Numbered from the stretch's first letter, positions 11,776 through 54,742 are shown. The stretch is DNA of 64,000 nt from Deltaproteobacteria bacterium (GCA_016218825.1 JACRCV010000006.1:6797-70796), one strand, 5' to 3'. Notes: generated from the sequence alone by a model not told the origin. Numbers and translations are program-made.

Positions 11776-11806
11776 AGGAACGACCCCGCCGCGACACTAA
11801 GATACG

Positions 11807-17691: not shown

Positions 17692-20600
17692 ATGTGGCGG
17701 AGGTGTGCAGTGCTCAAGCTCGCGATGGCGTTCGTCTTGGTGCTGGTCGGTTGCTCGGTAAAAGTCCCCAGCCCGGACGACGGGGCGTTTGCGTGCAACG
17801 ACAGCTCCGACTGTGCTTCGGGCTACTACTGCAACGATCAGCGTTGCCAGAAGAACGGCCCCTGCACCGGCGCGTCCTGCAACCAGGGCGCGGCTCTCGA
17901 GACCATCCTCGACTCGACGCCGCCGAATCCGAGCAACTCGCGCGACGCCTCCTTCTCGTTTCACTGGGCCGGCAGCGGCGTGGGCGCCGAGTGCAAGCTG
18001 GACTCGGAGTCGAGCTACACCGCGTGCTCGGCGCCGAAGCAATACACCGGGCTCGCGGACGGCTCGCATCACTTCGAGGTGCGCGCCAAGGACGCGAACG
18101 GCGCCGTTGACCCGACCCCCGCCGGCTACGACTGGACCATCACGACCGCGATCCCGGACACCATCATCGACACCTGGCCCGCGTCGCCGAGCTCGCCGAA
18201 CGTCAGCTTCACGTTCCACGCCACCCCGGCCACGACCACCTTCGAATGTCGGCTGGACGGCACCGCGTGGATGAGCTGCAGCTCTCCGAAGGCCTACACC
18301 GCGCTCGGCAACGGCGGTCATGTGTTCGAGGTGCGGGCCACGAGCGCCTTCGGGGCCGACCCCACGCCCGCGAGTTGGAGCTTCACCGTGACCAGCGTCG
18401 ACACCACGCCGCCGGACGCGACGGTCAGCGGGCCGGCCGCCTTCGTCGCCAGCACGACCGCGACCTTCTACTTCACCTGCAGCGAGGCCGGCTGCACCTT
18501 CACCTGCGTCGTCGACGGCGTCGGTCCCACGCCCTGCGGCGCCACGCATTCCGTCACGGTCGGGGGCGAGGGCACCCACACGCTGGCGGTCACGGCGACC
18601 GACGCCAACGGGAACCCAGATCCGTCGCCGGCCAACTACACCTGGGTCGTGGACCTGACGCCGCCCATGGTCACCGGCATCGATGGGCTGGTGTTCGGCC
18701 ATCCCACGTTCTTCCCCTACGTCCTCCAGCTCGACTCGGGGTCGGTGGTCGTCTCTTGCAGTGATGTGAACGGTTGCACCGTCACCTGTTCGTTGGACAA
18801 CCCGACCGGCGCCGGCAGCTGCGGCTCGATTCAGATCATGTCCGCCGGCGATCACGTCGTCTACGTGACCGCGACCGATGCCGCCGGCAACGCCGCGACC
18901 GAGCTGCTGTGGGTGGCGTTGTCGCCCTCCACCTGGCGCCAGGTGTCGTCCGGGGCGATGCACACCTGCGCCATCGGCTCCGGCTCCGGCTACGCCGGGA
19001 CGCTGTGGTGCTGGGGGTGGAACACCGTCAACCAGGTCGGCAGCACCCTGGCGTCAGCGAGCTCGGTGACGTTGCCGACGAATGTCATCCTGCCGCATCG
19101 GGTGGACAACGGGTCTGACTGGCAGCAAGTGAGCGCCGGCGGTTGGTTCACCTGCGGTCTCAAGGGCGCGGCCGCGCCGTTTACTCTCTATTGTTGGGGC
19201 GGCAACGAGTCCTTCCAGATGGGGAACGGCACGACGAACACCGCCACCACGCCGGTCCAGGTCGGCGACGCCGGCCACTGGTCGAGTGTCTCTGCGGGTC
19301 GGAATCATGTCTGCGCCATCGACAAGTTCCAGCACCTCCGGTGTTGGGGCATGATCGACTACTCGGGCGCGAGCGTGAGCACCTATCAGGCGCCGACGGC
19401 GATCGACGACACCAGAACCTTCGCCACGGTCTCGTCGGGAGACCGGTTCGCGTGCGGCGTCGACAGCAGCGCCAACCTTCGCTGCTTCGGCGCCGGCAAT
19501 CTGGGCCAGCTCGGCGACGGTCTCTTCACCGACTCCTCCGCCCTGCGGTTGGCGAGCACGACGAGCACCTTTTGGCAGGCGGTGGCGGCCGGCAACGCGC
19601 ACGCTTGCGCCATTCACCAGACCGGCGATGTCTACTGCTGGGGCGCCAACAACGCCGGGCAGGCTGGCGCGACCGCCGCGGGCACGCCCACCCCGTTGCC
19701 GGCCGGCACGTTCCGAAGCATCGCGGCAGGGGCGGAGCACACCTGCGCGAGCGACGGCGCCGGCAATCTCAAGTGTTGGGGTAGCAACAGCCACGGCCAG
19801 CTGGGGTTGGGCGACACCGCCAATCGGAACGCGCCGACCCAGGTTGCGACCGGCGTGTCGGTGGCGCCGCCGCCTCAGGTGATCGGCCTGGGTCAGAACC
19901 ACAGCTGCATGGTGAAGGGCGACAACACGCTCTGGTGCTGGGGCAGCCGGCACGAGGGCCAGGTGGGGAGCGGGACGTCGGGGGTCGTACCGGTGGGCGC
20001 GGCCGTGTGGGATCCGTTGTCCGCGGGCAACTTGTTGGCCAACACCGTCGCCCTCGGTGGGACCAGCACCTGCGCTGTCGACACCGCCCTGAATCTCCGC
20101 TGTTGGGGGGACAACTTCTACGGCCAGCTGGGTATCGGGTCGGCCGAGCCGCGGCAGCGGCCGGCGTTGGCGGCTGGGACGCCGGGCTACACCGCCCTGA
20201 CGCTCGGCAACCTGCACGCCTGCGGCATTCAGGCGGGCGGCGCCTATTGCTGGGGTTACGGCAATGACGGCGAGCTGGGTCTCGGTGACACCCAAGGCCG
20301 CAACCAACCGACCCGAATCGGCACGCTGAGCACCTGGACGGCGATTGCCGCCGGCTTGTATCGGACTTGCGGTATCCAGAACGAGGCGGCGAACGTCGAC
20401 AAACTGTTTTGTTGGGGCGAGGACGCTGACAGCCGTGGGCTCTTGGGGGTCGGCGCTCCGGGCACCAACCGTGTGGCGCCGACGTTGGTGCTTGGGGGCT
20501 ATCAAGACTGGGTCGCGGTGGCGCTCGGTCAGGGGCATCTGTGCGGGATCCACAAAGGCGCGGCGCCCACCGACAACACGCTCACCTGTTGGGGAAGCAA

Positions 20601-21138
20601 CGGATCGAGTCAGCTCGGCGATGGTGGGACCACGGATCAAGCGGCGCCCGTGCCGATCGGCGGCGCGTTGAAGGGCTGGGTCAAGATCAGCGCCGGCGGG
20701 TTTCACACTTGCGCCATCCGCCGGAACGGCGTCAATCGCGAGCTCTACTGTTGGGGCGATAACGGCGCGGGTCAGCTGGGGCTCGGCGACTTCAGTGGCA
20801 GGAGTCAGCCGACGCGGGTCGACGCGGACAGCGACTGGCTCACGGTGGAGGCGGCGGACTCGACGACCTGCGGCGTGCGCGGTCCGGTAGCCGGCGGCGT
20901 CGGTTCGCTTTGGTGCTGGGGCTACAACTACCACAACATCGTCGCGGCCGGCGCGACCCAGTTGTATCCGCTGCGGCAGCAGCTCGGGACCGACACCGAC
21001 TGGGCGGACGTCCGCGTCGGGTCCGGTCACGTCTGTGGCGTGAAGAGCGACAAGACGGTGCGCTGCTGGGGCGACAACGACCGCGGTGAGCTCGGCGACG
21101 GCGTCGCGTGGGCGACGACGCCGGAGCGATTGCCGTAG
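17692..21138 (+). CDS. Large lipoprotein: Cys-rich knot, 3-4 Ig-like domains, 14 RCC1 repeats
   Basis: Lipobox LVGC; Ig-like repeats (ETILDSTPP, DTIIDTWP, DATVSGP); 14 hand-counted G..HxC...C(W/F)G units. Confidence 0.9.
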   Translation: MWRRCAVLKLAMAFVLVLVGCSVKVPSPDDGAFACNDSSDCASGYYCNDQRCQKNGPCTGASCNQGAALETILDSTPPNPSNSRDASFSFHWAGSGVGAECKLDSESSYTACSAPKQYTGLADGSHHFEVRAKDANGAVDPTPAGYDWTITTAIPDTIIDTWPASPSSPNVSFTFHATPATTTFECRLDGTAWMSCSSPKAYTALGNGGHVFEVRATSAFGADPTPASWSFTVTSVDTTPPDATVSGPAAFVASTTATFYFTCSEAGCTFTCVVDGVGPTPCGATHSVTVGGEGTHTLAVTATDANGNPDPSPANYTWVVDLTPPMVTGIDGLVFGHPTFFPYVLQLDSGSVVVSCSDVNGCTVTCSLDNPTGAGSCGSIQIMSAGDHVVYVTATDAAGNAATELLWVALSPSTWRQVSSGAMHTCAIGSGSGYAGTLWCWGWNTVNQVGSTLASASSVTLPTNVILPHRVDNGSDWQQVSAGGWFTCGLKGAAAPFTLYCWGGNESFQMGNGTTNTATTPVQVGDAGHWSSVSAGRNHVCAIDKFQHLRCWGMIDYSGASVSTYQAPTAIDDTRTFATVSSGDRFACGVDSSANLRCFGAGNLGQLGDGLFTDSSALRLASTTSTFWQAVAAGNAHACAIHQTGDVYCWGANNAGQAGATAAGTPTPLPAGTFRSIAAGAEHTCASDGAGNLKCWGSNSHGQLGLGDTANRNAPTQVATGVSVAPPPQVIGLGQNHSCMVKGDNTLWCWGSRHEGQVGSGTSGVVPVGAAVWDPLSAGNLLANTVALGGTSTCAVDTALNLRCWGDNFYGQLGIGSAEPRQRPALAAGTPGYTALTLGNLHACGIQAGGAYCWGYGNDGELGLGDTQGRNQPTRIGTLSTWTAIAAGLYRTCGIQNEAANVDKLFCWGEDADSRGLLGVGAPGTNRVAPTLVLGGYQDWVAVALGQGHLCGIHKGAAPTDNTLTCWGSNGSSQLGDGGTTDQAAPVPIGGALKGWVKISAGGFHTCAIRRNGVNRELYCWGDNGAGQLGLGDFSGRSQPTRVDADSDWLTVEAADSTTCGVRGPVAGGVGSLWCWGYNYHNIVAAGATQLYPLRQQLGTDTDWADVRVGSGHVCGVKSDKTVRCWGDNDRGELGDGVAWATTPERLP

Positions 21139-21226
21139 GCGCGCGGCATCTGGCCAGGAGCCCCTAGACCCGACCCCGACCCGACGCTAGATTCGCCCCG
21201 CCTCTGACTGTTGCGAGGTGAGAGTA

Positions 21227-21769
21227 ATGCGCGACGCGGTGTTGAAGCTGTGGCCGGAGCTCGACTGGATCGAGAACGCGGCGCTCAAAGAGGCGACGAT
21301 CAGCACCTGGGTGAAGGCCTTCGAGCTCAGCCCGCTTTCGGCCGCGGACCTCGACGAGATCCCGTTCACGCTGCTCGTCCCCAACTGCAAGGCGACCTTC
21401 ATGCAGCACAAGCGCTGCGTGGTGCACCTCGCCAAGCACGCCGCCCAGGACATGCAGCAGCACCTGGGTCACGCGCTGCCGATCGACATGGACACCGTGA
21501 TCGCCGGCGCCATCCTCGCCGACGTCGGCAAGCTCTTGGAGTACGACAAGCAAGGCGGCAAGGCGGTGCAGTCGAAGCGCGGCGAGGCCTTGCGACATCC
21601 GTTCACCGGGGTGGCGTTGGCGATGATGTGCGGCGTGCCGGACGCGGTCTGCCACGTCATCGCGGCGCACGCCGGCGAGGGCGATCTGGTGAAGCGCAGC
21701 ACCGAGGCCCTGATCGTTCACCACGCCGACTTCATGAGCTTCGAGCCCTTCAAGAACCTGAAGAAGTGA
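21227..21769 (+). CDS. HD/HDIG-domain protein with AD in place of HD
   Basis: QHKRCV, GAILADVGKLLE, RHPFTG, IAAHAGEG, VHHAD. Confidence 0.85.
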   Translation: MRDAVLKLWPELDWIENAALKEATISTWVKAFELSPLSAADLDEIPFTLLVPNCKATFMQHKRCVVHLAKHAAQDMQQHLGHALPIDMDTVIAGAILADVGKLLEYDKQGGKAVQSKRGEALRHPFTGVALAMMCGVPDAVCHVIAAHAGEGDLVKRSTEALIVHHADFMSFEPFKNLKK

Positions 21770-21776
21770 GACGACC

Positions 21777-23159
21777 ATGCCGGGCGACACCATCACCAAG
21801 ACGATGAGCACCTGGGCCGCGGGCCTGAGCTTCAAGCACCTCACCCCCGAGGCGGTGCACGAGGCCAAGCGCTACCTGCTCGACTCGATCGGCTGTGCGC
21901 TCGGCGGTTTCATGCAGCACGACGTCAAGATCGCGCTGAAAGTGCTCGGGCCGATGGCGGGCAAGGGCAAGGCCACGGTGATCGGCACCGGCAAGAAGAT
22001 CGATCCGGTCTCGGCGTCGCTGTTGAACGCGTTGATGGTCCGGGTGATGGACTACAACGACATCTACTGGCGCCAAGACCCGTCGCACCCGTCCGACATC
22101 ATCCCCGCGGCCCTCGCCACCGGCGAGCTCGGCGGCAAGAACGGCAAAGACCTGGTGGTCGGCGTCGTCCTGGGGCACGAGCTCGAGATGCGGCTGTGCG
22201 AGTGCGCCTTCCCCGGGGTGCGAGAGCGCGGCTGGCACCACGCGACCTTGACCGCCTTCGCCTCGCCGATCGTCGCCGGGCGGATGCTGGCCTTGAGCGC
22301 CGAGAAGATCCAACACGCGATCGGCATCTCCGGCTCGCGGCACGCCACCCTCGGCGCGGTCACCGCCGGCAAGCTGACGATGATGAAGAACACCGTCGAC
22401 CCGATGGCGACCCAGTCGGGCGTGTTGGCGGCGCTCTTGGCGAAGGAGGGCTACACCGGCCCCGAGCACGTCATCGACGGCAAGGAGGGCCTGGCCCACT
22501 GCCTGAAGCCGGAGTGGAAGCTGAACATCCTCACCGACGGCTTGGGCCAGAGTTTCCGCATCACCCAGTGCGGCATGAAGGCGTTTCCGACCGAGGCGCT
22601 GACGCACGCGCCGATCAGCTGCACCCTCGACATCATCAAGGGGCACGACCTGGCGCCGGACGAGGTGGCGAAGGTCAAGATCCGCTCGCTGGCGCGCGCC
22701 GCCGACATCCTCGCCGATCCGTCGAAGTACGACCCGCGCTCCAAGGAGACCGCGGACCATTCGCTGCCGTACGTGATCGCCGCGGCGATCGCCGACCGCC
22801 AGGTGACGCCACTGCAGTTCACCCAGAAGAAGATCATGAGCCAGGCGATCCGCTCGCAGCTCGACAAGGTCGAGGTCAAGGCCGATCCCGAGATCGAGGC
22901 GCTGTTCCCGAAGCTGCAGCGGGTCCACGTCACCGTGGTCACCACCGACGGTCGCGAGCTCGTCAAGCAGATCGACTTTCCGAAGGGTGACCCCAGAAAC
23001 CCGCTCACCGACGCCGAGGTCGAGGAGAAGCTCGAGGCGCTCGCGGCGCCGGTCGTCGGCAAGCCCGCCCTGGCGAAGATCAAGGACGCGGTGTGGGGCC
23101 TCGAGCGTCTGAAGTCGATCTCGGACTTGATGCAGCTCTTGCGCGCCCGGGCACGGTGA
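21777..23159 (+). CDS. prpD: MmgE/PrpD-family dehydratase (2-methylcitrate dehydratase-like)
   Basis: LLDSIGCALGG, DYNDIY..SHPSD, KAFPTEALTH, ETADHSLPY, FPKGDPRNPL. Confidence 0.9.
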   Translation: MPGDTITKTMSTWAAGLSFKHLTPEAVHEAKRYLLDSIGCALGGFMQHDVKIALKVLGPMAGKGKATVIGTGKKIDPVSASLLNALMVRVMDYNDIYWRQDPSHPSDIIPAALATGELGGKNGKDLVVGVVLGHELEMRLCECAFPGVRERGWHHATLTAFASPIVAGRMLALSAEKIQHAIGISGSRHATLGAVTAGKLTMMKNTVDPMATQSGVLAALLAKEGYTGPEHVIDGKEGLAHCLKPEWKLNILTDGLGQSFRITQCGMKAFPTEALTHAPISCTLDIIKGHDLAPDEVAKVKIRSLARAADILADPSKYDPRSKETADHSLPYVIAAAIADRQVTPLQFTQKKIMSQAIRSQLDKVEVKADPEIEALFPKLQRVHVTVVTTDGRELVKQIDFPKGDPRNPLTDAEVEEKLEALAAPVVGKPALAKIKDAVWGLERLKSISDLMQLLRARAR

Positions 23160-23167
23160 GGTCAAAG

Positions 23168-25123
23168 ATGGGACAGACCGTCGTCGAGAAGATCGCGCAG
23201 GCGCACATGAGCTCCGGGCCGCGCGGCCGGCCTCTCAGGGCCGGCGACTTCCTCACCGTCAAGCCGCGCCACCTGCTCACCCACGACAACACCTCGCCGG
23301 TGATCAAGAAGTTCAAGGGCATCATCAAGGGCATCAAGGCGGTCAAGGTGTTCGACCCCAGGCAGCCGGTGTTTGCGCTCGACCACGACATTCAGAATCG
23401 CACCGAGGAGAACCTGAAGAAGTACCGTGCCATCGAGGCGTTTGCCGCCGAGCACGGCATCGACTTCTATCCGGCCGGCACCGGCATCGGTCATCAGGTG
23501 ATGTGCGAGAACCTCTACGTGGTGCCCGGGGCGTTCGTGGTCGCCTCCGATTCGCACGCCAACATGTACGGCGCGCTCGGGGCGGTGGGGACGCCGGTGG
23601 TGCGCACCGACGCCGCCGCGATCTGGGCGACCGGCGAGTTCTGGTGGCAGATCCCCGCGACCCTGCAGGTGGTGCTGACCGGCAAGCTCCAAGCAGGCGT
23701 TACCGGCAAGGACCTCATCATCGCGTTGTGCGGCCTGTACGGCGAAGACAAGGTCCTGAACACCGCGGTCGAGTTCGCCGGCCCGGGGGTCGCGAGCCTG
23801 AGCATCGACGCGCGTTTGAGCATCGCCAACATGACGACCGAGTGGGGGGCGCTGGTCGGCTGGTTCCCGGTGGACGACCAGACCCTCGCCTGGGTCGAGA
23901 AGCGTCGCCAGGTGTTGGGGGCCAAGGGCGAGGCCCGCGCCAGCGCCGAGCAGATGCAGGAGTGGCGGCAGGCGCCGCCGCGGCCGGACGCGGACGCGGT
24001 CTACGCCGCGCGCCTCATCCTCGATCTGTCGACCGTGACGCCGGTGGTCTCGGGGCCGGACACGGTCCAGAAGACGTCGAGCTTGGCGGAGCTCGCGGCC
24101 AAGCACATCAAGATCCACAAGGCATATTTGTTGTCGTGCGTGAACTCGCGGCTCGAAGACCTCAAGGCCGCCGCCGCGGTGATTCGCGGCCGGAAGATCG
24201 CGCCCGGCGTGCAGCTCTACCTCGCCGCGGCCTCCAAAGAGGTGCAGAGCGCCGCGGAGCAGGACGGCGCCTGGCAGGCGCTGGTCGACGCCGGGGCGAC
24301 GGTGTTGCCGCCGTCGTGCGGGCCGTGCATCGGGTTGGGGCAGGGGCTGCTCGCCGCGGGGGAGGTGGGGATCTCGGCCACCAACCGCAACTTCAAAGGA
24401 CGGATGGGCTCGAAGGACGCCAAGTGCTACCTCGCGAGCCCCGCGGTGGTCGCGGCCTCGGCGATCGCGGGTGAGATCTGCGGCGCGGGTGCGGCGCCGA
24501 CGACGGCGGTCGAGCACAGCTACGAGGTGTTGAAGCCGCCGCCGCCGCAAAGCGAGCACGTCGAGATCCTCGCCGGCTTCCCGGCGACGCTTTGCGGTCG
24601 CCTGGTGTACTTGCCGGTCGACAACCTCAACACCGACGGCATCTACGGCAAGGACTACACCTACAAAGACGACGTCAGCCCGGAAGAGATGGCGCGGGTG
24701 GTGATGGAGAACTACGATCCGCAGTTCTCGACCCTGGCCCGGGCCGGCGACATCCTGGTCGCGGGCTTCAACTTCGGCACCGGCTCGAGCCGCGAGCAGG
24801 CGGCGACGGCGCTGAAGGCCAAGGGGCTGCAGCTCGTGATCGCCGGCAGCTTCTCGCAGACCTACCAGCGCAACGCCTTCAACAACGGCGTGCCCCTCGT
24901 CGAGTGCCCGCAGCTCTCGCGCCAGCTGTGGGCGGCGCACGCGGCCAAGGGTGACAAGACGGTGATCCCCGGGCCCGAGCTCGAGGTGGACTTCAGGACC
25001 GGCGTGGTGTCGTGGCAGGGGCAGGCCTTCCATTTCGTGCCCCTCGGCAGCGTGCCGCAGGCGCTGGTGGTGGCGGGCGGGGTCGAGAATCAGGTGATGA
25101 AGAAACTCGGGATCCGGGCGTAG
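23168..25123 (+). CDS. Homoaconitase-like aconitase (fused large and small subunits, fungal Lys4/LysF type)
   Basis: DSHANMYG, LLSCVNSR, PSCGPCIG (three cluster Cys), SATNRNFKGRMG, DNLNTDGIY, GFNFGTGSSREQAATAL. Confidence 0.88.
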   Translation: MGQTVVEKIAQAHMSSGPRGRPLRAGDFLTVKPRHLLTHDNTSPVIKKFKGIIKGIKAVKVFDPRQPVFALDHDIQNRTEENLKKYRAIEAFAAEHGIDFYPAGTGIGHQVMCENLYVVPGAFVVASDSHANMYGALGAVGTPVVRTDAAAIWATGEFWWQIPATLQVVLTGKLQAGVTGKDLIIALCGLYGEDKVLNTAVEFAGPGVASLSIDARLSIANMTTEWGALVGWFPVDDQTLAWVEKRRQVLGAKGEARASAEQMQEWRQAPPRPDADAVYAARLILDLSTVTPVVSGPDTVQKTSSLAELAAKHIKIHKAYLLSCVNSRLEDLKAAAAVIRGRKIAPGVQLYLAAASKEVQSAAEQDGAWQALVDAGATVLPPSCGPCIGLGQGLLAAGEVGISATNRNFKGRMGSKDAKCYLASPAVVAASAIAGEICGAGAAPTTAVEHSYEVLKPPPPQSEHVEILAGFPATLCGRLVYLPVDNLNTDGIYGKDYTYKDDVSPEEMARVVMENYDPQFSTLARAGDILVAGFNFGTGSSREQAATALKAKGLQLVIAGSFSQTYQRNAFNNGVPLVECPQLSRQLWAAHAAKGDKTVIPGPELEVDFRTGVVSWQGQAFHFVPLGSVPQALVVAGGVENQVMKKLGIRA

Positions 25124-25158
25124 GGCCTCGACCCACAGCGATTGAGGAGAGTCGGACA

Positions 25159-26346
25159 ATGGCACGTCACACCGTGGTCGCGATGCCGGGCGACGGCATC
25201 GGCAAGGTGGTGTTGCCCGAGGCGATTCGGGTGCTCGAGGCGGTGGGCTTCGACGCCGAGTACGTGCACGGCGACATCGGCTGGGACTTCTGGGTCAGCG
25301 AGGGCAACGCGCTGCCGGAGCGCACCGTGGCGCTCCTCGCCAAGCACAAGCTCGGGCTGTTCGGCGCCATCACCTCCAAGCCCAACAAGGACGCCGAGGC
25401 CGAGCTCAGCCCGGCACTGAAGGGCAAGGGCTTCAAGTACTTCAGCCCGATCGTCGGCATGCGGCAGAAGTTCAACCTCGACATCTGCGTGCGGCCCTGC
25501 AAGTCGTATCCCGGCAACCCGTTGAACTTCGTCCGCAAGCGGCCGGACGGCGCGGTCGAGGAGCCGGCGGTGAACGCGGTGATCTTCCGCCAGAACACCG
25601 AAGGGCTCTACGCCGGCGTCGAGTGGACCAACCCCTCGACCCAGGTGCGTGACGCCATCGCCACCCATCCGAAGTTCAAGGCGTTCGACAAGGTGCCGTC
25701 GGACGAGATGGCGCTGTCGGTGCGCATCATCACCCGCCAGGGTGCGACCCGCATCTGCACCGCGGCCTTCGAGTACGCCAAGCGGCACGGCTTCAAGAAC
25801 GTCACGATCTGCGAGAAGCCGAACGTGCTGCGCGAGACCTCGGGGCTGATGGAGGAGGTGGCGAAGGAGGTCGCGAAGAAGTACCCGGCGGTCGCGTTGT
25901 GGTCGGTCAACATCGACGCCATGACGATGTGGCTCACCAAGAACCCCGAGGAGTACGGCGTCATCGTCGCCTCCAACCTGTTCGGCGACGTGATCTCCGA
26001 CGCGTTCGCGGGGCTGGTCGGCGGGCTCGGGTTCGCCTGCTCCGGCAACATCGGCGACGAGGTCGCGGTGTTCGAGCCGACCCACGGCTCGGCGCCGAAG
26101 TACGCCGAGCTGAAGCCGTCGATCGTCAACCCGATCGCGACCATTCTGTCGGCGGCGATGCTCGCCGAGCACGTCGGTGACGTCGAGCGCGCCAAGAAGA
26201 TCGAGGCCGCGGTCGCCGCGGTGGTGAGAGAGGGCAAGGTGCGCACCTACGACATGGCCCGGCTGCCGGGCGGTCCGGACGCCTTGAAGCGCGGGGCGCA
26301 CAACACTCGAGAGCTCGGCGACGCGATCATCGCCAAGCTCAAGTAG
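25159..26346 (+). CDS. Isocitrate/isopropylmalate dehydrogenase family, homoisocitrate-dehydrogenase-like
   Basis: PGDGIG, YFSPIVGMR, FRQNTEGLY, EKPNV, NLFGDVISD, EPTHGSAP. Confidence 0.9.
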   Translation: MARHTVVAMPGDGIGKVVLPEAIRVLEAVGFDAEYVHGDIGWDFWVSEGNALPERTVALLAKHKLGLFGAITSKPNKDAEAELSPALKGKGFKYFSPIVGMRQKFNLDICVRPCKSYPGNPLNFVRKRPDGAVEEPAVNAVIFRQNTEGLYAGVEWTNPSTQVRDAIATHPKFKAFDKVPSDEMALSVRIITRQGATRICTAAFEYAKRHGFKNVTICEKPNVLRETSGLMEEVAKEVAKKYPAVALWSVNIDAMTMWLTKNPEEYGVIVASNLFGDVISDAFAGLVGGLGFACSGNIGDEVAVFEPTHGSAPKYAELKPSIVNPIATILSAAMLAEHVGDVERAKKIEAAVAAVVREGKVRTYDMARLPGGPDALKRGAHNTRELGDAIIAKLK

Positions 26347-26382
26347 CGTCGCGGCCGCTGGGGCTCGGCGCGGGAGCGTGTC

Positions 26383-27591
26383 ATGGTGCTCGAGAACAGG
26401 ACCGGGGTCGGGAGTGCGGGTCGGAGCGGCCCCGAGGTGCGCTCCGACCTCCGGGTGCAGGTCGCGACCCGGAGCGCCGGCGGGCTCGAGCTCAGCCTCA
26501 AGTCCAAGGTCGAGCCCTACTACGGCGACGCGATCCGCGAGCAGGTGCGATCGCTGTGCAAGGGGCTGGGGCTGCTGCACGCCAAGGTCGAGGTCGACGA
26601 CGCCGGCGCGGTGCCGTTCGTGATCGCGGCGCGCCTCGAGGCGGCGGTGCGGGCGGCCGGGGCGGGCGCTGGCCACGACGTGCGACCGCCGCGCTTGGAT
26701 CCGTTGCCGCCGCCGAGCTCGAAGACCCGGGTGCGCCGTTCGCGCCTCTACTTGCCGGGCAACGAGGCCAAGTTCATGCTGAGCGCCGGGCTGCACGGTC
26801 CGGACGGTGTCATCCTCGATCTCGAAGATTCGGTGCACCCGGCGGCCAAGGACGAAGCACGGCTGGTGGTCCGCAACGCGCTGCGGCAGGTGGACTTCGG
26901 CGCCTGCGAGCGGATGGTGCGCATCAACCAGCTGCCGCTCGGGCTCGAGGATCTGGCGGCGGTGGTGCCCGAGAGCCCGGATCTCATCTTGATCCCCAAG
27001 GTCGAGACCGCGGCGCAGGTCGAGGCGGTCGATCGGGCGGTGGCCGGCCTCTTGGGGAGCGACGCGCGGCCGCTGTGGCTGATGCCGATCATCGAGTCGG
27101 CGCTCGGGGTCGAGAACGCCTTCGCGATCGCCCGGGCGGCGTCGCGGGTCGCGGCCCTGACCATCGGCCTCGAGGACTACACCGCCGACCTGGGCGTGGT
27201 GAAGACCGCGACGGGCGACGAGACGTTGTGGGCGCGTGCCCGGCTGGTGAACGCCGCGCACGCCGCCGGGGTGCAGGCCATCGACTCGGTGTTCGGCGAC
27301 TTCGGCGACGAGGCGGGGTTGCGGGCCTGGGCCCTGAAGTCGCGGGCGATGGGCTTCGAGGGGATGGGCTGCATCCATCCGCGCCAGATCCCGATCATCC
27401 ACGAGTGCTTCGCGCCGTCGGCGGCGGAGATCGAGCGCGCCAAGAAGATCGTCGCCGCCTTCAAGGAGGCCGAGGCCAAGGGCGTCGGGGTCGTGAACCT
27501 CGGCTCGAAGATGATCGATCCGCCGGTGGTCGAGCGCGCCCGCCGCCTGGTCGCGGCGGCCGAGGCGATGGGGCTGTTGGCCAAAGGGTGA
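26383..27591 (+). CDS. citE: Citrate lyase acyl-carrier (CitD-like) fused to beta subunit (CitE)
   Basis: N-terminal ~95 aa CitD-like (SKVEPYYGDAIR..VDDAGAVPFVIAARLEAAV); CitE motifs RRSRLYLPG, LDLEDSV, VRIN, IPKVE, IIES, GLEDY, IHPRQI. Confidence 0.9.
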   Translation: MVLENRTGVGSAGRSGPEVRSDLRVQVATRSAGGLELSLKSKVEPYYGDAIREQVRSLCKGLGLLHAKVEVDDAGAVPFVIAARLEAAVRAAGAGAGHDVRPPRLDPLPPPSSKTRVRRSRLYLPGNEAKFMLSAGLHGPDGVILDLEDSVHPAAKDEARLVVRNALRQVDFGACERMVRINQLPLGLEDLAAVVPESPDLILIPKVETAAQVEAVDRAVAGLLGSDARPLWLMPIIESALGVENAFAIARAASRVAALTIGLEDYTADLGVVKTATGDETLWARARLVNAAHAAGVQAIDSVFGDFGDEAGLRAWALKSRAMGFEGMGCIHPRQIPIIHECFAPSAAEIERAKKIVAAFKEAEAKGVGVVNLGSKMIDPPVVERARRLVAAAEAMGLLAKG

Positions 27592-27604
27592 CGGGAGCTG
27601 GTCG

Positions 27605-29206
27605 ATGAGCGACAAGGTTGAGCTGTCGGAGAACGCGCTCGGGCGCCTGGTGCCGAGCGTGGTGAACGGCCGGCGCGAGGTCGCGTTCCAGGGCGTCAAC
27701 GCCCATCGGCCGCAAGGCAGGAAGCACGCGCCTTCGATTCGCAGCTCCGCCGACTATCCCGCGAACGGCGACAAGCGGGTGGCCGACCTCGAGACCGCGC
27801 TGAAGAAGTGCGGCGTCAAGAGCGGCATGGTGATCTCCAACCACCACCATTTCCGCAATGGCGACATCGTGGCGCTACAGGCGCTGCAGACCGCGGCCCG
27901 GCTCGGCGCCAAGGACCTGGTGTGGTTTCCGAGCGCCTCGTTTCCCTGCCAGGCGGCGGTGATCGAGCTGATGCAGCAGGGGGTCGTGCACCACATCGAG
28001 GGCAGCATGAACGGGCCGCTCGGCGATTACTGCACCGCCGGCAAGATGCGGGGTCTCGGGGTGCTGCGCTCGCACGGCGGTCGGTGGCAGGCGGTGCAGG
28101 ACGGCGAGGTGGAGATCGACATCGCGGTGATCGCGGCGCCCACCGCAGACCCCTTCGGGAACGCCGACGGCAGCCACGGTAGGTCGGCGTGCGGCTCGCT
28201 CGGCTTCGCGCTCGCCGACGCCACCTACGCCGAGCGCGCCATCGTCGTCACCGACAACCTGGTGCCCTTCCCCTGCATCCCCTGGCAGATCCAGGGCAAC
28301 CACATCGATCACGTGGTGGTGACCGACTCGATCGGTGACCCGGCGAAGATCGTCTCCGGCACCACCGAGATCACCAAGAGCCCGGATCGCTTGCGGATCG
28401 CCGAGTACGTGGCGCGCTTCCTCGCCGACGCCGGCATTATGAAGGACGGCTTCTCGTTCCAGGCCGGGGCCGGCGGCATCGCGCTGGCGTTCGTCAGCTA
28501 CCTCAAGGAGCTGATGCGTGGCGCCGGGGTCAAGGCGCGCTTCGTGCGCGGCGGCTCGACGAAGTACCTGGTGGAGCTGTTGAACGAGGGGCTCGTCGAC
28601 TACATCCTCGACGGTCAGACCTTCGATCTGCACGGCGTGGCGAGCATCGCCTCGAACCCGCGGCACGTGGCGACCTCGCCGTTCACCTCCTACAACCACC
28701 AGGGCAAGGGCAACTTCGCCACCTTCGTCGACGCCGCGGTGCTCGGGGCGACCGAGGTGGACGTTCACTTCAACGCCAACGTCGTCACCCACTCCGACGG
28801 CCGTCTGTTGCACGGCATCGGCGGCTGGCAGAACTGTCTGTTCTCCGGCTGTTCGATCTTGGCGGTGCCGTCGGTGCGCGACCGGATCCCGGTGATCGTC
28901 GACCGGGTGACGACGCTGGTCGGCCCCGGCGAGCTCGTCGACGTGGTCGCGACCGAGCGCGGCATCGCCATCAATCCGCGGCGCACCGACCTCTTGCAGG
29001 CGGTCCGCGGCACGTCGCTGCCGATCCGGCCGATCGAGGAGATCAAGGCCGAGGTCGAGAAGATCTGCGGCGGCAAGCCCAAGCCCCCGGCGCTCGGCGA
29101 CACGCCGGTGGCGGTGGTGAAGTGGGTCGACGGTACGATCATCGACACCGTGTGGCAGGTGCTGGGCCCGTTCGCGGCGGCGGGCGGCGGCGGCGGTGGC
29201 GACTAG
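27605..29206 (+). CDS. citF: Citrate lyase alpha subunit / citrate CoA-transferase
   Basis: HHHFRNGD, LRSHGGR, FSFQAGAGG, LGATEVD..FNANV, GIGG, VDVVATERGIAINPRR. Confidence 0.92.
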   Translation: MSDKVELSENALGRLVPSVVNGRREVAFQGVNAHRPQGRKHAPSIRSSADYPANGDKRVADLETALKKCGVKSGMVISNHHHFRNGDIVALQALQTAARLGAKDLVWFPSASFPCQAAVIELMQQGVVHHIEGSMNGPLGDYCTAGKMRGLGVLRSHGGRWQAVQDGEVEIDIAVIAAPTADPFGNADGSHGRSACGSLGFALADATYAERAIVVTDNLVPFPCIPWQIQGNHIDHVVVTDSIGDPAKIVSGTTEITKSPDRLRIAEYVARFLADAGIMKDGFSFQAGAGGIALAFVSYLKELMRGAGVKARFVRGGSTKYLVELLNEGLVDYILDGQTFDLHGVASIASNPRHVATSPFTSYNHQGKGNFATFVDAAVLGATEVDVHFNANVVTHSDGRLLHGIGGWQNCLFSGCSILAVPSVRDRIPVIVDRVTTLVGPGELVDVVATERGIAINPRRTDLLQAVRGTSLPIRPIEEIKAEVEKICGGKPKPPALGDTPVAVVKWVDGTIIDTVWQVLGPFAAAGGGGGGD

Positions 29207-29269: not shown

Positions 29270-31612
29270 GTGACCAGCACTCTTCCCAACGGCATAGAGC
29301 TCGGTCGCTACCGCATCGTCAAGCTGCTCGGGCGTGGCGCGTCGGGGAACGTGTACCTGGCGCGCGACAACCTGCTCGACGTCGACGTCGCGTTGAAGGC
29401 CTTCCTGCCGGCGGTGATCGAGTCCGAGGAGGCCTGGGAGCGGGTGCGGCGCGAGCTGTTGCTCGCCCGGCGCCTGGCGCACCGCGGCATCTGCCGCTTG
29501 TTCGATCTGCACGCCGAAGGCGGCACGCGCTTCATCACCATGGAGTACATCGAGGGTCAGAGCCTCGAGGAGATCCTGGAGCGCGAGGCGCCGCTCGCCC
29601 CGGGGCGCGCGGTGGCCATCGCCTGCGCGCTGCTCGACGCGCTCGCCGTCGCGCATGACGCCGGCATCACCCACCGCGATCTGAAGCCGATGAACGTCAT
29701 CATCGACAGCTCCGGGCGGGTGGTGATCCTCGACTTCGGGTTCGCGAAGGGCAAGGGCGGCCGCGAGGTGACGCAGGCGGGCTCCTACGTCGGCACCCCG
29801 GCCTACATGGCGCCGGAGCTCTTCGGCGGCGTCGCGGCCTCGGCCGAGACCGATCTGTGGGCGGTCGCGGTCATTCTGTTTCGCGCCTTGACCCGGGTGG
29901 CGCCGTTCGCGGGTGACAACCTGCTCGAGGTCGGGCGGGCGGTCGTCAACGATCTGCCGGAGTCGCCGGCGCGCATCACCGGCACCGTCCCGGAGACGCT
30001 GTCGGCGGTGGTGATGCGGGCGCTCGACAAGACCCCCGGTCGTCGTTACCCGTCGGCGCGCGTCTTTGCCGCCGCCCTGGCGTCGTTCGCCGACGCCAAG
30101 GTCCTGCCGTCGCAGCCCGGGCTGGCGCCGGAGTGGGGGCCGCCGACCGCCGCCTATGATTCTCCACCCGGCGAGACCAGCGCCTCGATCACCGCCGCCT
30201 CGGGCATAGCGCCACTGGAGATCGGCGGCATCACCGCGCTGACGCCGCTCATCACCGACGGCCCGATGCCGCGGCTGGAGCGCACCGCGGTGACCGGCGA
30301 CGCTTCGTTCTCGCAGGTGATCCGCGGCAACATCGTGCCGACCACCATCCTGTTCTCCGACATCGTCGGCTTCACCAGCTACTTCGACCACTTCGGTGAC
30401 GTCCGCGGCCGCAAGCTGCTCGAGACCCACAACAAGCTGCTGCTGCCGATCATCGATGCCAACCACGGCAAGGTGGTGAAGACCATCGGCGACGCGATCA
30501 TGGCGATGTTCCCTTCCGCGGACGACGGGGTCAGCGCCGGGATCGCGATGCAGCGCAGCCTGGTGCTGCACAACGGCGGCGCCCCCCGCGAGGACCGGAT
30601 CACGATCCGCATCGGCCTGCACTCGGGCGACGCCATCGTCGAGAAGCAGGACGTCTTCGGCAACACCGTGAACGTCGCGGCGCGGATCGCGGCGCGCTCG
30701 GAGGGCGGCCAGATCCTGATCTCGGCCCAGACCCACGCGGCGCTCACCCTGCAGTCGGGCATGGTCACCTTCCACACCGCCGCCGAGCTCAAGGGCAAGG
30801 AGGAGGTCTACGACCTTTACCGGGTGCAGTGGCACGAGGGGACCGAGCCGGTGCCGCGGCTCACCGAGTCCGCCGAGCTCCCCGAGGAGCCGCCGGAGGG
30901 CACCGACCCCGAGGTGTTGCCGGACAAGCCGGAGGCGACCAGCCGCACCCGGCCCGACATCCTGGCGCCGCCGCGCACCACCAAGTGGGTGGCCGCGGGA
31001 GCGACGCTGCTCTTGGTCGCGGTCGCCGTGCTGCTGTTGGCGCTGTGGTCGCCCCCTTGGCTGTCCCGGATCCTCCCGGCGGCGGTGCCGCTGCCCGCGG
31101 AGGAGGCCGCGGCCGGCACGATCACCGAGCTGCAAGTGGCGCCACCGCCGTCGGTCGCCACCGAGACCACGATCCAGTCTCCGGTCAAGCCGCTCACCCC
31201 GGTCCAGAGTGAAGACAAGGCCACGGGCCGCAAGCGCGCGCTGCTGCAGGCCCAGGCGCAGAGGGTCGATCAGGCACTGCAGGCGAAGGGCATCATCGAG
31301 GGGGACCTCGCGGAGCTCGATCTCGCCTGTCGCCGGGCGGACCGGTTGGCGCGCCAAGGGCGCTACGAGGACGCGGTGACCTCGTTCAAGCACGCGGAGC
31401 AGGTGGCCCTCGCCGCGGTGATCGACAAGGGGTTCGTCAGCGCCAAGCTGATGCGCTTCAACCGCCAGTTCGACCGGGTCCGCAACAAGGCTCTGAAGAA
31501 GAAGCTCGAGCCGGTGGGGCAGACGGTGCTGAACGCGATCGCGGCCGGCGATGAAGAGGCCGCCAACCGCCACTTGAACCGGGGGTTCAGCATGCTGAAG
31601 GGGCCCCCTTAG
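29270..31612 (+). CDS. Ser/Thr kinase - class III adenylate cyclase - TM - extracytoplasmic helical domain
   Basis: GRGASG, VALK, HRDLKPMN, DFG, GTPAYMAPE; cyclase FSDIVGFT, KTIGDA, IGLHSG, DVFGNTVNVAAR; TM WVAAGATLLLVAVAVLLLAL. Confidence 0.92.
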   Translation: MTSTLPNGIELGRYRIVKLLGRGASGNVYLARDNLLDVDVALKAFLPAVIESEEAWERVRRELLLARRLAHRGICRLFDLHAEGGTRFITMEYIEGQSLEEILEREAPLAPGRAVAIACALLDALAVAHDAGITHRDLKPMNVIIDSSGRVVILDFGFAKGKGGREVTQAGSYVGTPAYMAPELFGGVAASAETDLWAVAVILFRALTRVAPFAGDNLLEVGRAVVNDLPESPARITGTVPETLSAVVMRALDKTPGRRYPSARVFAAALASFADAKVLPSQPGLAPEWGPPTAAYDSPPGETSASITAASGIAPLEIGGITALTPLITDGPMPRLERTAVTGDASFSQVIRGNIVPTTILFSDIVGFTSYFDHFGDVRGRKLLETHNKLLLPIIDANHGKVVKTIGDAIMAMFPSADDGVSAGIAMQRSLVLHNGGAPREDRITIRIGLHSGDAIVEKQDVFGNTVNVAARIAARSEGGQILISAQTHAALTLQSGMVTFHTAAELKGKEEVYDLYRVQWHEGTEPVPRLTESAELPEEPPEGTDPEVLPDKPEATSRTRPDILAPPRTTKWVAAGATLLLVAVAVLLLALWSPPWLSRILPAAVPLPAEEAAAGTITELQVAPPPSVATETTIQSPVKPLTPVQSEDKATGRKRALLQAQAQRVDQALQAKGIIEGDLAELDLACRRADRLARQGRYEDAVTSFKHAEQVALAAVIDKGFVSAKLMRFNRQFDRVRNKALKKKLEPVGQTVLNAIAAGDEEAANRHLNRGFSMLKGPP

Positions 31613-31670: not shown

Positions 31671-31946
31671 ATGTCTGAGATCAAGATTGAACGGTCGCAC
31701 AAGCTCGGCAGCGACGAAGCCAAGAAGCGCTTTGCCGGCATCGAGGCCAAGCTCAAGGAGCGTTACGGCGTCGCGCTCGAGTGGCAGGGCCACAACGCCA
31801 CGGTGAAGGGCTCGGGCGTCACCGGTGACGTCAAGGTGACGAGCGACCGCATCGCGGTGGTCCTGAGGCTCGGCTTCCTGGTGCGGCCGTTCGCGGCGAA
31901 GATCAGAGAGGCCATCGAGCGCCAGGTGGACGAGAAGCTGGTGTAG
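31671..31946 (+). CDS. Polyhydroxyalkanoic acid system family protein (PHA_gran_rgn)
   Basis: IERSHKLG.DEAK..WQG..VKGSGVTG..LGFLVRPF..KI pattern, 91 aa. Confidence 0.85.
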   Translation: MSEIKIERSHKLGSDEAKKRFAGIEAKLKERYGVALEWQGHNATVKGSGVTGDVKVTSDRIAVVLRLGFLVRPFAAKIREAIERQVDEKLV

Positions 31947-31984
31947 CGCCTCCGGGCGTCGTGCTAGGGTCGGCGGCGAGGGCG

Positions 31985-32497
31985 ATGAAGAAGACCAGGC
32001 CACCCGAAGCGGCGAGTGTCTCCGACGCGGTGTCGCGGCGCGACTTCCTGGCCGACAGCGGTCGGCTGGTCACCGCGGCGTGCCTCGCCGGGGTGACGGC
32101 CGGCGCGGTGCGCTTGAGCCTCCCGGACGTCGAGAGCGGCCGGCGGCCGCGGGCGCGGCTCGGCGCGCCTGCCGACTTCAAGATGGGGACGGTGACCTGG
32201 CTGCAAGAGCACGAGCTCTTCGTCTGCCACAAGGCGCACGGCTTCGCGGCCTTCTCCTCGCGCTGTCCGCATCTCGGCTGCACGGTGCGGCGCACCACCA
32301 CCGGCTTTCGCTGCCCGTGTCACGGCGCGCGCTTCGACCCCGAGGGCCGGGTGGTCTCCGGGCCGGCGCGCCGGGCCCTCGACTGGTTCGCGGTCGAGAC
32401 CGGCCCCGACGGCCAGCTGTGGGTCGACCGGAGCCGCGCCACCGAGCCCGGCAGCTTCACCCCCTTGCGGGTCGCGGCCGCGGAGTCGGCCGGATGA
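31985..32497 (+). CDS. Rieske 2Fe-2S subunit of a Rieske/cytochrome b complex
   Basis: Tat motif SRRDFL; boxes CPHLGC and CPCHGARF; GPA..AL. Confidence 0.93.
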   Translation: MKKTRPPEAASVSDAVSRRDFLADSGRLVTAACLAGVTAGAVRLSLPDVESGRRPRARLGAPADFKMGTVTWLQEHELFVCHKAHGFAAFSSRCPHLGCTVRRTTTGFRCPCHGARFDPEGRVVSGPARRALDWFAVETGPDGQLWVDRSRATEPGSFTPLRVAAAESAG

Positions 32498-33858
32498 GCT
32501 TCGTGGCCGACGTCGTCCGCGCGGCGCGGGCGCTGCCCCAGAACCTGCGTCACGACCTGCACCCCGGGGTGTCGGCCGACGACAGTCCGGGCTCGCGCCT
32601 GCGGCGCAGCTTCCTCTACCACCTGTTCCCGCTGCGGGTGACCGAGCGCGCCCTCGCGCCGGCCACCACCTTCGGGCTCGGGCTCGTCAGCGTCGCGCTC
32701 TTCATTCTCCTCACGGTCACCGGCCTGTTGTTGATGTTCTACTACGTGCCGACGCCGCGCGACGCTTACGGCAGCATGCTCGACATCGACAACGTCGTGA
32801 CCTTTGGCCGCCTCTGCCGCCGCCTGCATCGCTTCGGCGCCGACCTGATGGTGGCCGTCGTCTTGTTGCACCTCGTCCGAGTGGTGGCCCAGGCCGCGTA
32901 CCGGCGTCGCGAGCTCAACTGGCTCATCGGCCTCGGGCTCGCGTCGCTGCTCGTCGGCCTGGCGTTCACCGGGTATCTGTTGCCCTGGGACCAGCGGTCG
33001 TACTGGGCGGTGCGCGTGGTCACCGAGCTGTTGGGCTTGTTGCCGGTCGTCGGCCGGGCGATGCAGCTCGTCTTGGTGGGCGGCGCCGAGGTCGGCGCGG
33101 CGACCTTGTCGCGTTTCTACGCCTTGCACGTGGCCCTGTTGCCGCTCGGGATGCTCGGGTGTTTGGTGTGGCATCTGTGGCGGATCCGCAAGGACGGCGG
33201 GCTGGCGGCGGTCGAGGTCGATCCGCCGACGGTCGCGGCCTGGCCGCACCTGGTGCTCCGGGTGTCGCTGGTGCTGCTCGGCACGACCGCGCTCGTGCTG
33301 TTCGTCGCCCTGGTACAAGACGCGCCGCTCGCGCCGCTCGCCAACCCGCTGCGGCCCGAGAACCCCGAGAAGGCGCCGTGGTACTTCCTCGCGGTGCAGG
33401 AGATGGTGAGCTACTCGGCGTTGACCGGCGGCGTCGTCATTCCGGTGTTGACCGCGCTGGGGTTCTTGGCGCTGCCGTTTCTCGACCGCGCCGACCTTGA
33501 CGTCGGATACTGGCTCGGAGCGCGCGGCGAACGGCGCACGGTGCTGGTCGCGGTCGTGGCGAGCGGTGTCGTGCTCGGCCTTGGCACCGTCGCCTACCTC
33601 ACGCCCGAGCTCGGCGCGGTCCTCGAGGCGCTGCCGCCCTGGGCACACGACGTCTTGAACCCGGCGGGCCTGATGTTGTGCTGGACGGCGCTCGTCGTCG
33701 TCGGCACCGGCCTGCGCACCGACGCGGTGCGGCCGGCGTTGCGTGCCGGGATCGGGGCGCTCTTCGTCGGCCTGTGTGTGTTCACCCTCCTCGGGATGCT
33801 GCGCGGGCCGGACTGGGGTCTGGCCTCGCCGTGGGAGGCGTTCCGCCGTGTCTTTTGA
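32494..33858 (+). CDS. Cytochrome b with fused subunit IV
   Basis: Heme His in RRLHRFG..LLHL and ALHV..WHL; GYLLPWDQ; APWYF (PEWY equivalent); ATGA overlap with the Rieske gene. Confidence 0.93.
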   Translation: MSFVADVVRAARALPQNLRHDLHPGVSADDSPGSRLRRSFLYHLFPLRVTERALAPATTFGLGLVSVALFILLTVTGLLLMFYYVPTPRDAYGSMLDIDNVVTFGRLCRRLHRFGADLMVAVVLLHLVRVVAQAAYRRRELNWLIGLGLASLLVGLAFTGYLLPWDQRSYWAVRVVTELLGLLPVVGRAMQLVLVGGAEVGAATLSRFYALHVALLPLGMLGCLVWHLWRIRKDGGLAAVEVDPPTVAAWPHLVLRVSLVLLGTTALVLFVALVQDAPLAPLANPLRPENPEKAPWYFLAVQEMVSYSALTGGVVIPVLTALGFLALPFLDRADLDVGYWLGARGERRTVLVAVVASGVVLGLGTVAYLTPELGAVLEALPPWAHDVLNPAGLMLCWTALVVVGTGLRTDAVRPALRAGIGALFVGLCVFTLLGMLRGPDWGLASPWEAFRRVF

Positions 33859-34861: not shown

Positions 34862-34882
34862 GGGCGAGAGGAGCGTTACGGT

Positions 34883-35443: not shown

Positions 35444-35451
35444 GGTGAACG

Positions 35452-54737: not shown

Positions 54738-54742
54738 CCGGG

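Follow-up and report, generated by a model that had tools for sequence, protein, structure and literature searches.

A conserved six-gene operon combining MmgE/PrpD-family and homoaconitase-like proteins with a citrate-lyase-like complex, and its possible role in homocitrate-type metabolism

The stretch of DNA analysed here, referred to as the window, comprises 64,000 nucleotides (nt) from a Deltaproteobacteria bacterium (GCA_016218825.1, JACRCV010000006.1:6797-70796). Six co-oriented genes, all on the + strand, are located at positions 21227-29206 of the window. Together they encode an HD-fold protein, an MmgE/PrpD-family protein, a homoaconitase-like Fe-S enzyme, a dehydrogenase and a citrate-lyase-like complex. 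Genes were called from a list of open reading frames (ORFs) with a filter on third-position G+C, the G+C content of the window being approximately 70%, and domains were assigned by Pfam and NCBIfam profile searches with curated cutoffs. The start of the HD-fold protein was set from a database copy of 180 amino acids (aa), P0121. The genes are, in order:

21227-21769 (+), HD-fold protein, 180 aa
21777-23159 (+), MmgE/PrpD-family protein (hereafter PrpD-like protein), 460 aa
23168-25123 (+), homoaconitase-like protein, large and small domains in one chain, 651 aa
25159-26346 (+), dehydrogenase of the isocitrate/isopropylmalate family (Iso_dh), 395 aa
26383-27591 (+), CitD-CitE fusion, 402 aa
27605-29206 (+), CitF, 533 aa

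The intergenic gaps measure 7, 8, 35, 36 and 13 nt in gene order. A preliminary description of this region had reported six co-oriented genes with gaps of 7-36 nt, and the coordinates, strand, gaps and Pfam/NCBIfam domains all agree with it. The four components that it named in its title, a PrpD, a fungal-type homoaconitase, a homoisocitrate dehydrogenase-like enzyme and a citrate-lyase-like complex, are present, but the title omitted the HD-fold gene, which is conserved and the first of the six.

The distribution of the unit was examined in a species scan, using one genome per species and the PrpD-like protein as the query. At least 568 stretches were found to encode a PrpD-like protein; 80 of these loci were kept, and their gene order was read by local tblastn with the six window proteins. 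The 80 loci come from Acidobacteriota (Terriglobia and Thermoanaerobaculia), Gemmatimonadota, Latescibacterota, Rhodothermales and Eisenbacteria. A colinear operon with the same gene order was found in 58 of the 62 loci with at least 7 kilobases (kb) of downstream DNA, the HD gene is located directly 5' of the PrpD-like gene in 76 of 78 loci, and the flanking genes vary from locus to locus. The arrangement is therefore a conserved operon and not the result of chance.

The operon proteins are 60-80% identical across phyla. For the PrpD-like, CitF and HD proteins the identity is approximately 79-81% within a phylum and 72-77% between phyla; the PrpD-like protein has thousands of relatives in the database, and each of the 120 best matches shares 74-79% identity with it. 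We take these flat identities to mean that all six proteins are under very strong constraint, possibly with lateral spread as well.

All-against-all clustering of the ORFs in 82 sequences (81 loci and the window) revealed no seventh recurrent gene. No further family occurred in more than approximately 10 loci, and the larger apparent clusters were shadow ORFs of the six genes; nor was any transporter, regulator or other catabolic gene conserved alongside the operon in these sequences. A full-text search of the literature retrieved no paper describing the operon or the gene combination, and no match for 'homocitrate lyase', in agreement with the earlier statement that no characterised operon of such composition was known. 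None of the curated NCBIfam models is specific to the HD protein, the PrpD-like protein, the dehydrogenase or the lyase. All of the protein families are already known, and the pathway logic resembles that of 2-oxoacid homologation.

The homoaconitase-like protein is a single chain carrying the Pfam domains Aconitase and Aconitase_C. It scored 736.7 bits with the homoaconitase model TIGR00139 (h_aconitase, cutoff 529.9), whereas every other aconitase or isopropylmalate isomerase model stayed below its cutoff. The best solved relative is the large subunit of the homoaconitase from M. jannaschii (2e-69). Conserved elements in 68 orthologues are the motifs SCVNSR and CGPCIG, which contain the three cluster-binding cysteines, and the small-domain loop YGKDYTY(K/R)DD. 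The basic residue (K/R) of this loop is as expected for binding of a distal carboxylate and would point to such a substrate; the loops to compare it with in methanogens are YLRT/YLVY. The predicted identity of the protein as a fungal (Lys4)-type homoaconitase, i.e. a [4Fe-4S] hydro-lyase, thus holds, as the preliminary description had it. Fungal homoaconitase catalyses only the step from homoaconitate to homoisocitrate, and the other half, from homocitrate to homoaconitate, is carried out by a second enzyme (PMC3556520). This agrees with the notion of a 'split aconitase' put forward for the window, in which the dehydratase half would presumably fall to the PrpD-like protein.

Membership of that protein in the MmgE/PrpD superfamily is clear (PF03972, 241 bits; PF19305, 139 bits), but it is not a PrpD orthologue as the earlier naming implied. 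It reached 53, 73 and 75 bits with the three PrpD equivalog models (TIGR02330, NF006943 and NF042438), for which 458, 575 and 950 bits would have been required. Its closest solved relatives are iminodisuccinate epimerase (2e-36) and cis-aconitate decarboxylase (IRG1/CAD, 1e-31 to 1e-23), whereas true PrpD is matched only at 1e-14 or weaker. Judged by these scores it is best placed in a distinct MmgE/PrpD subfamily. The active site of human CAD reportedly consists of eight residues, D93, T97, H103, H159, K207, K272, H277 and Y318. In the alignment to CAD the equivalents of D93, H103, H159, K207 and K272 are kept, and those of H103, H159, K207 and K272 are invariant among the 20 aligned PrpD-like homologues, which share 74-78% identity with the window protein. 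A role as cis-aconitate decarboxylase was considered and rejected, as three of the eight residues differ (T97 to I, H277 to E and Y318 to A).

The activities established for the MmgE/PrpD family include dehydratase, decarboxylase, epimerase and methylsuccinate isomerase, and most of its members are uncharacterised (PMC12290011, 2025). All of these enzymes act on a succinate substructure via an enolate, and the conserved His and Lys residues hold this substructure (PMC12290011), a chemistry that fits a beta-elimination on a citrate analogue. From its operon context the PrpD-like protein would be a (homo)citrate-type dehydratase, a role that we infer from context because the family also holds decarboxylases and epimerases. 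It is possible, as a purely inferred point by analogy with the methylcitrate cycle, that a PrpD-type partner is used for stereochemical reasons, in that the enantiomer on which the lyase acts could be dehydrated by syn-elimination.

An exhaustive search among representatives returned the orthologue group, a few sister clusters at 43-50% identity and then a broad background at 30-36%. No related operon was seen in the surroundings of L084-L086, three sisters that are 46-50% identical. Another sister lies in a contig from Bathyarchaeia (L087, GCA_038882735.1), where positions 1084-12487 encode two MmgE/PrpD proteins, LeuC/LeuD-like proteins and two HD proteins, 41% and 38% identical to the one in the window, together with an ICL/PEP-mutase-family protein, an OYE-type reductase, a solute-binding protein and a CMD-family protein. 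A further locus (L090, 3539-11242) contains a co-oriented block of a TctCBA tricarboxylate transporter, a UbiD-family decarboxylase, LeuC/LeuD-like proteins and an MmgE/PrpD protein 36% identical to that of the window; it is probably a separate, undescribed tricarboxylate pathway. Since distant PrpD-like genes again adjoin LeuC/LeuD-like hydro-lyases in these two loci, the recurring pairing of a PrpD-family protein with a LeuCD/aconitase-family hydro-lyase supports the general logic of a two-enzyme isomerase.

The HD-fold protein belongs to this pairing. HD-fold proteins join a pair of this kind in L087, which shows that the HD protein travels with the PrpD-like/hydro-lyase pair and not with the lyase. 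In the operon it accompanies the PrpD-like and aconitase-like proteins as an obligatory partner. It matches Pfam HD at 26.9 bits and TIGR00277 (HDIG) at 30 bits. The best match in a sequence search of the PDB was only YedJ, at 0.12, and a Foldseek search with its AlphaFold model (pLDDT 87.7) returned nothing specific, the top match being the HD domain of YhaM with a TM score of 0.69, a generic HD fold. The HD doublet is degenerate, with His replaced by Ala in all bacterial copies, within an invariant ILADVGK, while the homologues from Bathyarchaeia keep an intact doublet.

The dehydrogenase, of the beta-decarboxylating kind (PF00180), gave its best NCBIfam matches with AksF2, LEU3_arch and AksF, at 257-267 bits and all below cutoff; the homoisocitrate dehydrogenase equivalogs were accordingly missed (AksF2, 267 against 540; AksF, 257 against 500; iso_homocit_dh, 145 against 680). 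The best solved relative is the homoisocitrate dehydrogenase from Thermus (7e-58). The substrate loop reads YFSPIVGMR, and its S-P-I-V core is invariant across 63 orthologues. The solved homoisocitrate dehydrogenase of S. pombe (3ty3) has YSSPIVALR, whereas the aligned isocitrate dehydrogenases have S-x-N-V-x-x-R, so that the loop is of the homoisocitrate dehydrogenase type and the Asn of the aligned isocitrate dehydrogenases is replaced by Ile. The fungal motif given in the preliminary description and its likeness to the window loop are both confirmed by the S. pombe structure. The Asn in question is N115 of the E. coli isocitrate dehydrogenase, which binds the gamma-carboxylate of isocitrate. 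Unexpectedly, the proposed likeness to homoisocitrate dehydrogenase does not extend to the cofactor site: HGSAPKYA is invariant among the orthologues, whereas two NAD-type relatives, the Thermus enzyme and an NAD-dependent isocitrate dehydrogenase, have APDIA. The characterised homoisocitrate dehydrogenases depend on NAD+. APKYA is the K344/Y345 signature of the NADP-dependent isocitrate dehydrogenase from E. coli, and the cofactor motif is of the NADP type. Stretches bearing the catalytic Tyr, Lys and Asp (EGLYAG, EKPNVL, NIDA and GDVISD) are present and largely conserved.

The last two genes encode all three parts of a citrate-lyase-like complex, i.e. a carrier domain whose Ser is conserved, the lyase (beta) part and the transferase (alpha) part, as had been proposed. 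In the CitD-CitE fusion a CitD-type acyl carrier protein (ACP) domain occupies approximately residues 1-95 (PF06857, 60.9 bits) and a CitE-type acyl-ACP/CoA C-C lyase approximately residues 116-397 (PF03328, HpcH_HpaI, 172.5 bits). CitF (PF04223, 431.9 bits) corresponds to the alpha subunit, an acyl-ACP:carboxylate ACP/CoA transferase. The equivalog cutoffs were missed for citD (TIGR01608, 49.6 against 63.5) and citE (TIGR01588, 260.5 against 443.4), and narrowly so for citF (TIGR01584, 472.6 against 501.45). Identities to the E. coli proteins are approximately 29% for CitD, 37% for CitE and 39% for CitF. The solved relatives of the CitE part are malyl-CoA lyase, CLYBL and CitE, and those of CitF are 2hj0 (5e-114) and 1xr4. 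Of 45 aligned orthologues, all except L071, which has GSD, retain the Ser of an RSD(L/V) motif. This Ser is no more than one position away from the Ser14 region of E. coli CitD, where the prosthetic-group serine is found, and is presumably the site of prosthetic-group attachment. The CitE domain starts with a conserved DLEDS stretch. The genes citC, citX and citG are found beside citDEF in the E. coli operon, and to our knowledge they accompany citDEF in other characterised citrate lyase operons too. A tblastn search with the E. coli CitC, CitX and CitG proteins (E <= 1e-3) gave no match in the 64-kb window or in the neighbourhoods of approximately 88 related loci.

Judging from these assignments, the six genes would form a self-contained tricarboxylic-acid module that needs neither ATP nor free CoA. 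The module would most likely act on the homocitrate series, a reading that we favour tentatively and with confidence somewhat below even. In general form it would interconvert a 2-substituted malate with a 2-oxoacid and acetate, followed by dehydration, rehydration and oxidative decarboxylation, or the reverse. Applied to homocitrate, CitD-E/CitF would interconvert homocitrate with 2-oxoglutarate and acetate by way of an acyl-thioester on the fused carrier, and the PrpD-family enzyme would dehydrate homocitrate to cis-homoaconitate, the step that lies beyond fungal-type homoaconitases. The Lys4-type Fe-S enzyme would then hydrate cis-homoaconitate to homoisocitrate, which the NADP-type dehydrogenase would interconvert with 2-oxoadipate and CO2. 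The net reaction would be 2-oxoglutarate + acetate + NADP+ <-> 2-oxoadipate + CO2 + NADPH. By a rough estimate this is near equilibrium at standard conditions and should be feasible both ways, based on textbook free energies of citrate lyase, aconitase and isocitrate dehydrogenase; the direction of flux could then hinge on acetate, CO2 and the ratio of NADPH to NADP+.

The homocitrate series is favoured because two indicators of specificity, membership in TIGR00139 and the S-P-I-V loop, point to it, and because the top family and structure matches of the dehydrogenase are homoisocitrate dehydrogenases. Other observations weigh against it. The predicted specificity draws on one loop motif and one hidden Markov model, the PrpD-like protein resembles an epimerase and a decarboxylase more closely than it does PrpD, and the NADP-type motif differs from the one in the aligned homoisocitrate dehydrogenase of Thermus. 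CitF is a mere 29 bits short of the citrate lyase equivalog cutoff, making citrate possible as a substrate, and a housekeeping citrate synthase is encoded close upstream of the operon in the window and in two other loci, L007 and L012, where a type I citrate synthase gene lies directly 5' of the HD gene. The citC, citX and citG genes that would prime and acetylate the carrier were not found near the operon, and no gene making or using 2-oxoadipate or 2-aminoadipate is linked to it in any of the 82 sequences. Furthermore, some Thermoanaerobaculaceae hold just the HD, PrpD-like and homoaconitase-like genes at the locus. In two of them (L051 and L065) these three genes are followed by a convergent sodium:dicarboxylate symporter gene (SDF), and in a third (L082) by a convergent ORF before the contig ends.

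The preliminary description had also suggested an entry to lysine biosynthesis through the alpha-aminoadipate pathway. Neither homocitrate synthase nor LysW/X/Y/Z/J/K or Lys2/9/1 recurs near the operon in the neighbourhoods of the 82 sequences, and at least one acidobacterium has diaminopimelate-pathway genes under the control of a lysine riboswitch (PMC5584792). Since no downstream aminoadipate gene is linked and diaminopimelate genes occur in at least one acidobacterium, lysine biosynthesis is unlikely as the general purpose of the operon.

Of the other explanations, the one that survives best is a different substituted citrate or malate, such as an alkyl-, hydroxy- or carboxyalkyl-citrate derived from plants or fungi, or the citramalate/methylmalate series, either made or degraded, with the PrpD-like protein acting as dehydratase, decarboxylase or epimerase. 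ACP-type lyases are known for citramalate as well as for citrate. Except for the homoaconitase, the five catalytic proteins all fall below every specific equivalog cutoff, related PrpD-like and LeuCD-like pairs occur in clearly different pathways (L090 and L087), and MmgE/PrpD proteins have diverse functions, with most of them uncharacterised (PMC12290011). Against this, none of the 82 sequences shows a conserved transporter, regulator or other catabolic gene, very strong conservation across phyla suits a central rather than a niche function, and the S-P-I-V loop and the basic small-domain residue point to a distal carboxylate as in homoisocitrate. A substrate of this kind is possible, if on balance somewhat unlikely.

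The operon might instead serve the citrate series, as an alternative branch from citrate via cis-aconitate and isocitrate to 2-oxoglutarate, in which an Fe-S-free PrpD-type dehydratase takes over half of the aconitase reaction, combined with an ordinary citrate lyase that cleaves citrate to oxaloacetate and acetate. E. coli PrpD dehydrates citrate weakly. The near miss of CitF (473 against 501 bits), citE as the best CitE-family match, the APKYA motif shared with E. coli isocitrate dehydrogenase and the housekeeping citrate synthase near the operon in three lineages would all be accommodated. However, Ile replaces the gamma-carboxylate-binding Asn of all aligned isocitrate dehydrogenases, the aconitase-family protein is recognised by the homoaconitase model and by none of the aconitase models, a citrate synthase beside a citrate lyase would constitute a futile cycle, and citC, citX and citG were found neither in the window nor in the approximately 88 loci. 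We regard the citrate series as distinctly unlikely. A variant methylcitrate cycle for propionate, with the lyase making or splitting 2-methylcitrate and PrpD and aconitase isomerising it, was rejected as highly improbable: automatic annotations do read 2-methylcitrate dehydratase and isomerisation split between PrpD and aconitase is a hallmark of this cycle (PMC3556520), but the PrpD scores are far below cutoff (53-75 against 458-950 bits), prpB, prpC and prpE do not occur among the linked genes, the cycle has no use for a beta-decarboxylating dehydrogenase, and the aconitase-family protein belongs to none of the types AcnA, AcnB and AcnD.

The module proposed here for the homocitrate series shares parts with several known systems. 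The upper alpha-aminoadipate pathway of fungi and Thermus consists of homocitrate synthase, aconitase plus Lys4, and the homoisocitrate dehydrogenase Lys12. The operon resembles it in the fused Lys4-type homoaconitase, in a dehydrogenase with the S-P-I-V loop as in fungi and in the requirement for a second enzyme to convert homocitrate to homoaconitate (PMC3556520). Unlike that pathway, it has a CitDEF-type lyase in place of a LeuA/NifV-type homocitrate synthase, a partner dehydratase from the MmgE/PrpD family rather than an aconitase, an NADP-type motif and an additional HD-fold protein, and it has no linked downstream lysine genes.

In the citCDEFXG operons of E. coli, Klebsiella and lactic acid bacteria, homologues of CitD, CitE and CitF are likewise adjacent and in the same order, and the region of the carrier Ser is conserved. 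The present operon differs in its CitD-CitE fusion, in the scores of its three subunits, none of which reaches its equivalog cutoff, and in the embedding of the lyase genes among isomerase and dehydrogenase genes; the ligase CitC, the holo-ACP synthase CitX and the prosthetic-group synthase CitG are not found in the window or the approximately 88 loci, which also lack a citrate carrier there. With the methylcitrate cycle (PrpC, PrpD, AcnB and PrpB) it has in common dehydration by an MmgE/PrpD-family enzyme and rehydration by an aconitase-family enzyme, but it contains no PrpD orthologue, methylcitrate synthase or methylisocitrate lyase, and it ends in an oxidative decarboxylation.

The 2-oxoacid elongation towards coenzyme B in methanogens (AksA, AksD/E and AksF) applies the same logic of isomerase and dehydrogenase to homocitrate-type acids. 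AksF2 and AksF are the top matches of the dehydrogenase, and the large subunit of the M. jannaschii homoaconitase is the closest solved relative of the Fe-S enzyme. The operon proteins score far below the equivalog cutoffs, however, and methanogens use the acetyl-CoA-dependent synthase AksA and not a lyase complex. As PMC3556520 relates from Drevland 2008, the methanogen homoaconitase carries out both half-reactions, so that no PrpD-like partner is needed.

The six-gene unit occurs in several hundred or more species from Acidobacteriota, Gemmatimonadota and neighbouring phyla and has no assigned function, a gap in the metabolic maps by which soil and sediment metagenomes are interpreted. If the homocitrate reading is true, a carrier-bound lyase replaces the acetyl-CoA-dependent synthase, a new C-C step in 2-oxoacid homologation, and a dedicated homocitrate dehydratase is identified. 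This would extend the functions of the largely uncharacterised MmgE/PrpD family and place the origin of the fungal lysine enzymes in a bacterial setting. Whatever the substrate, the operon encodes an ACP-type lyase without the usual maturation genes nearby, and an HD-fold protein coupled to a PrpD-like/aconitase-like pair. Taken to its full extent, the proposal would be that dominant soil and sediment phyla share an unrecognised ATP- and CoA-free route from 2-oxoglutarate and free acetate to 2-oxoadipate, or in reverse a CO2-consuming cleavage of 2-oxoadipate. Such a route would involve a new homocitrate lyase, an MmgE/PrpD homocitrate dehydratase, an NADP-dependent homoisocitrate dehydrogenase and an HD accessory protein, with the carrier primed by an unknown system and the operon a bacterial relative of fungal Lys4/Lys12. 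In its entirety we consider this proposal doubtful, and rather unlikely to hold in every part.

A few loci depart from the standard arrangement. In L014 (11477-14785) the homoaconitase-like protein and the dehydrogenase are encoded in one ORF of 1103 aa, which reflects either a genuine fusion or a stop codon lost in a long-read assembly; no lyase gene is found within the following 6.6 kb. An additional ORF is found between the PrpD-like and homoaconitase-like genes in L040, L056, L060 and L063, and between the dehydrogenase and CitD-E genes in L035 and L046. Those in some Terriglobales operons encode a DinB-like protein of approximately 155 aa, or one of 163 aa with no assigned family. Inserted ORFs in some loci are DinB-like, antitoxin-like or of no assigned family, and are not informative.

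The operon in the window is preceded by a short leader:

21139-21226 (+), intergenic leader of 88 nt, with a weak promoter-like TAGACC-N17-TAGATT and the ribosome-binding site GAGGTGAGAG

The promoter assignment in this leader is weak; a consensus scan for promoters and terminators gave no leader site at threshold and nothing above the shuffled background. No riboswitch or other RNA family was detected by Rfam at gathering score anywhere in the 64-kb window. Many loci from Terriglobia (e.g. L016-L021, L029 and L036) carry a promoter-like element similar to that of the window, CTCGAC-N17/18-TAAGCT, approximately 110 nt 5' of the HD gene. A palindrome, TCACA-N6-TGTGA, is found upstream of the HD gene in a subset of Acidobacteriaceae (L014, L034, L053 and L073 among the examples) and may be the binding site of a regulator.

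Acquisition of the operon as a horizontal-transfer island was considered and rejected, there being no compositional anomaly (G+C of 0.68-0.71 in the operon and 0.64-0.74 elsewhere in the window). The citrate synthase of the window is of the eukaryote type (PRK09569, 786 bits) and is encoded at 15956-17419 (+), 3.8 kb upstream of the operon. The gene directly upstream, at 17572-21138 (+), encodes an RCC1-repeat protein of 1188 aa with a lipoprotein-like N-terminus and Ig-like domains, and the one directly downstream, at 29270-31612 (+), a fusion of a Ser/Thr protein kinase with an adenylate/guanylate cyclase domain. These are followed by a cytochrome b fusion protein (31867-33858), a pair consisting of a GMC oxidoreductase and gluconate 2-dehydrogenase subunit 3 (34862-37119) and, adjoining this pair, a B12-binding radical SAM protein (37168-38703, -).

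Further downstream, a single ORF of 3123 aa at 41419-50790 (+) contains haem-binding repeats of the cytochrome c7/c3 type and the Geobacter CxxxxCH...CxxCH motif, and appears to encode a giant multihaem cytochrome. A second multihaem cytochrome, of 882 aa and with c7, c3 and MtrC/MtrF-like domains, is encoded at 52212-54860 (-), with CcsA/ResB-type cytochrome c assembly genes nearby (39167-41414, -). The multihaem cytochromes, the eukaryote-type citrate synthase and the G+C content of 70% would fit a deltaproteobacterial host, similar to Myxococcota or Geobacter. The presence of the giant cytochrome, and of the 882-aa cytochrome near these assembly genes, suggests that the host may use extracellular electron transfer of the kind found in Anaeromyxobacter or Geobacter.

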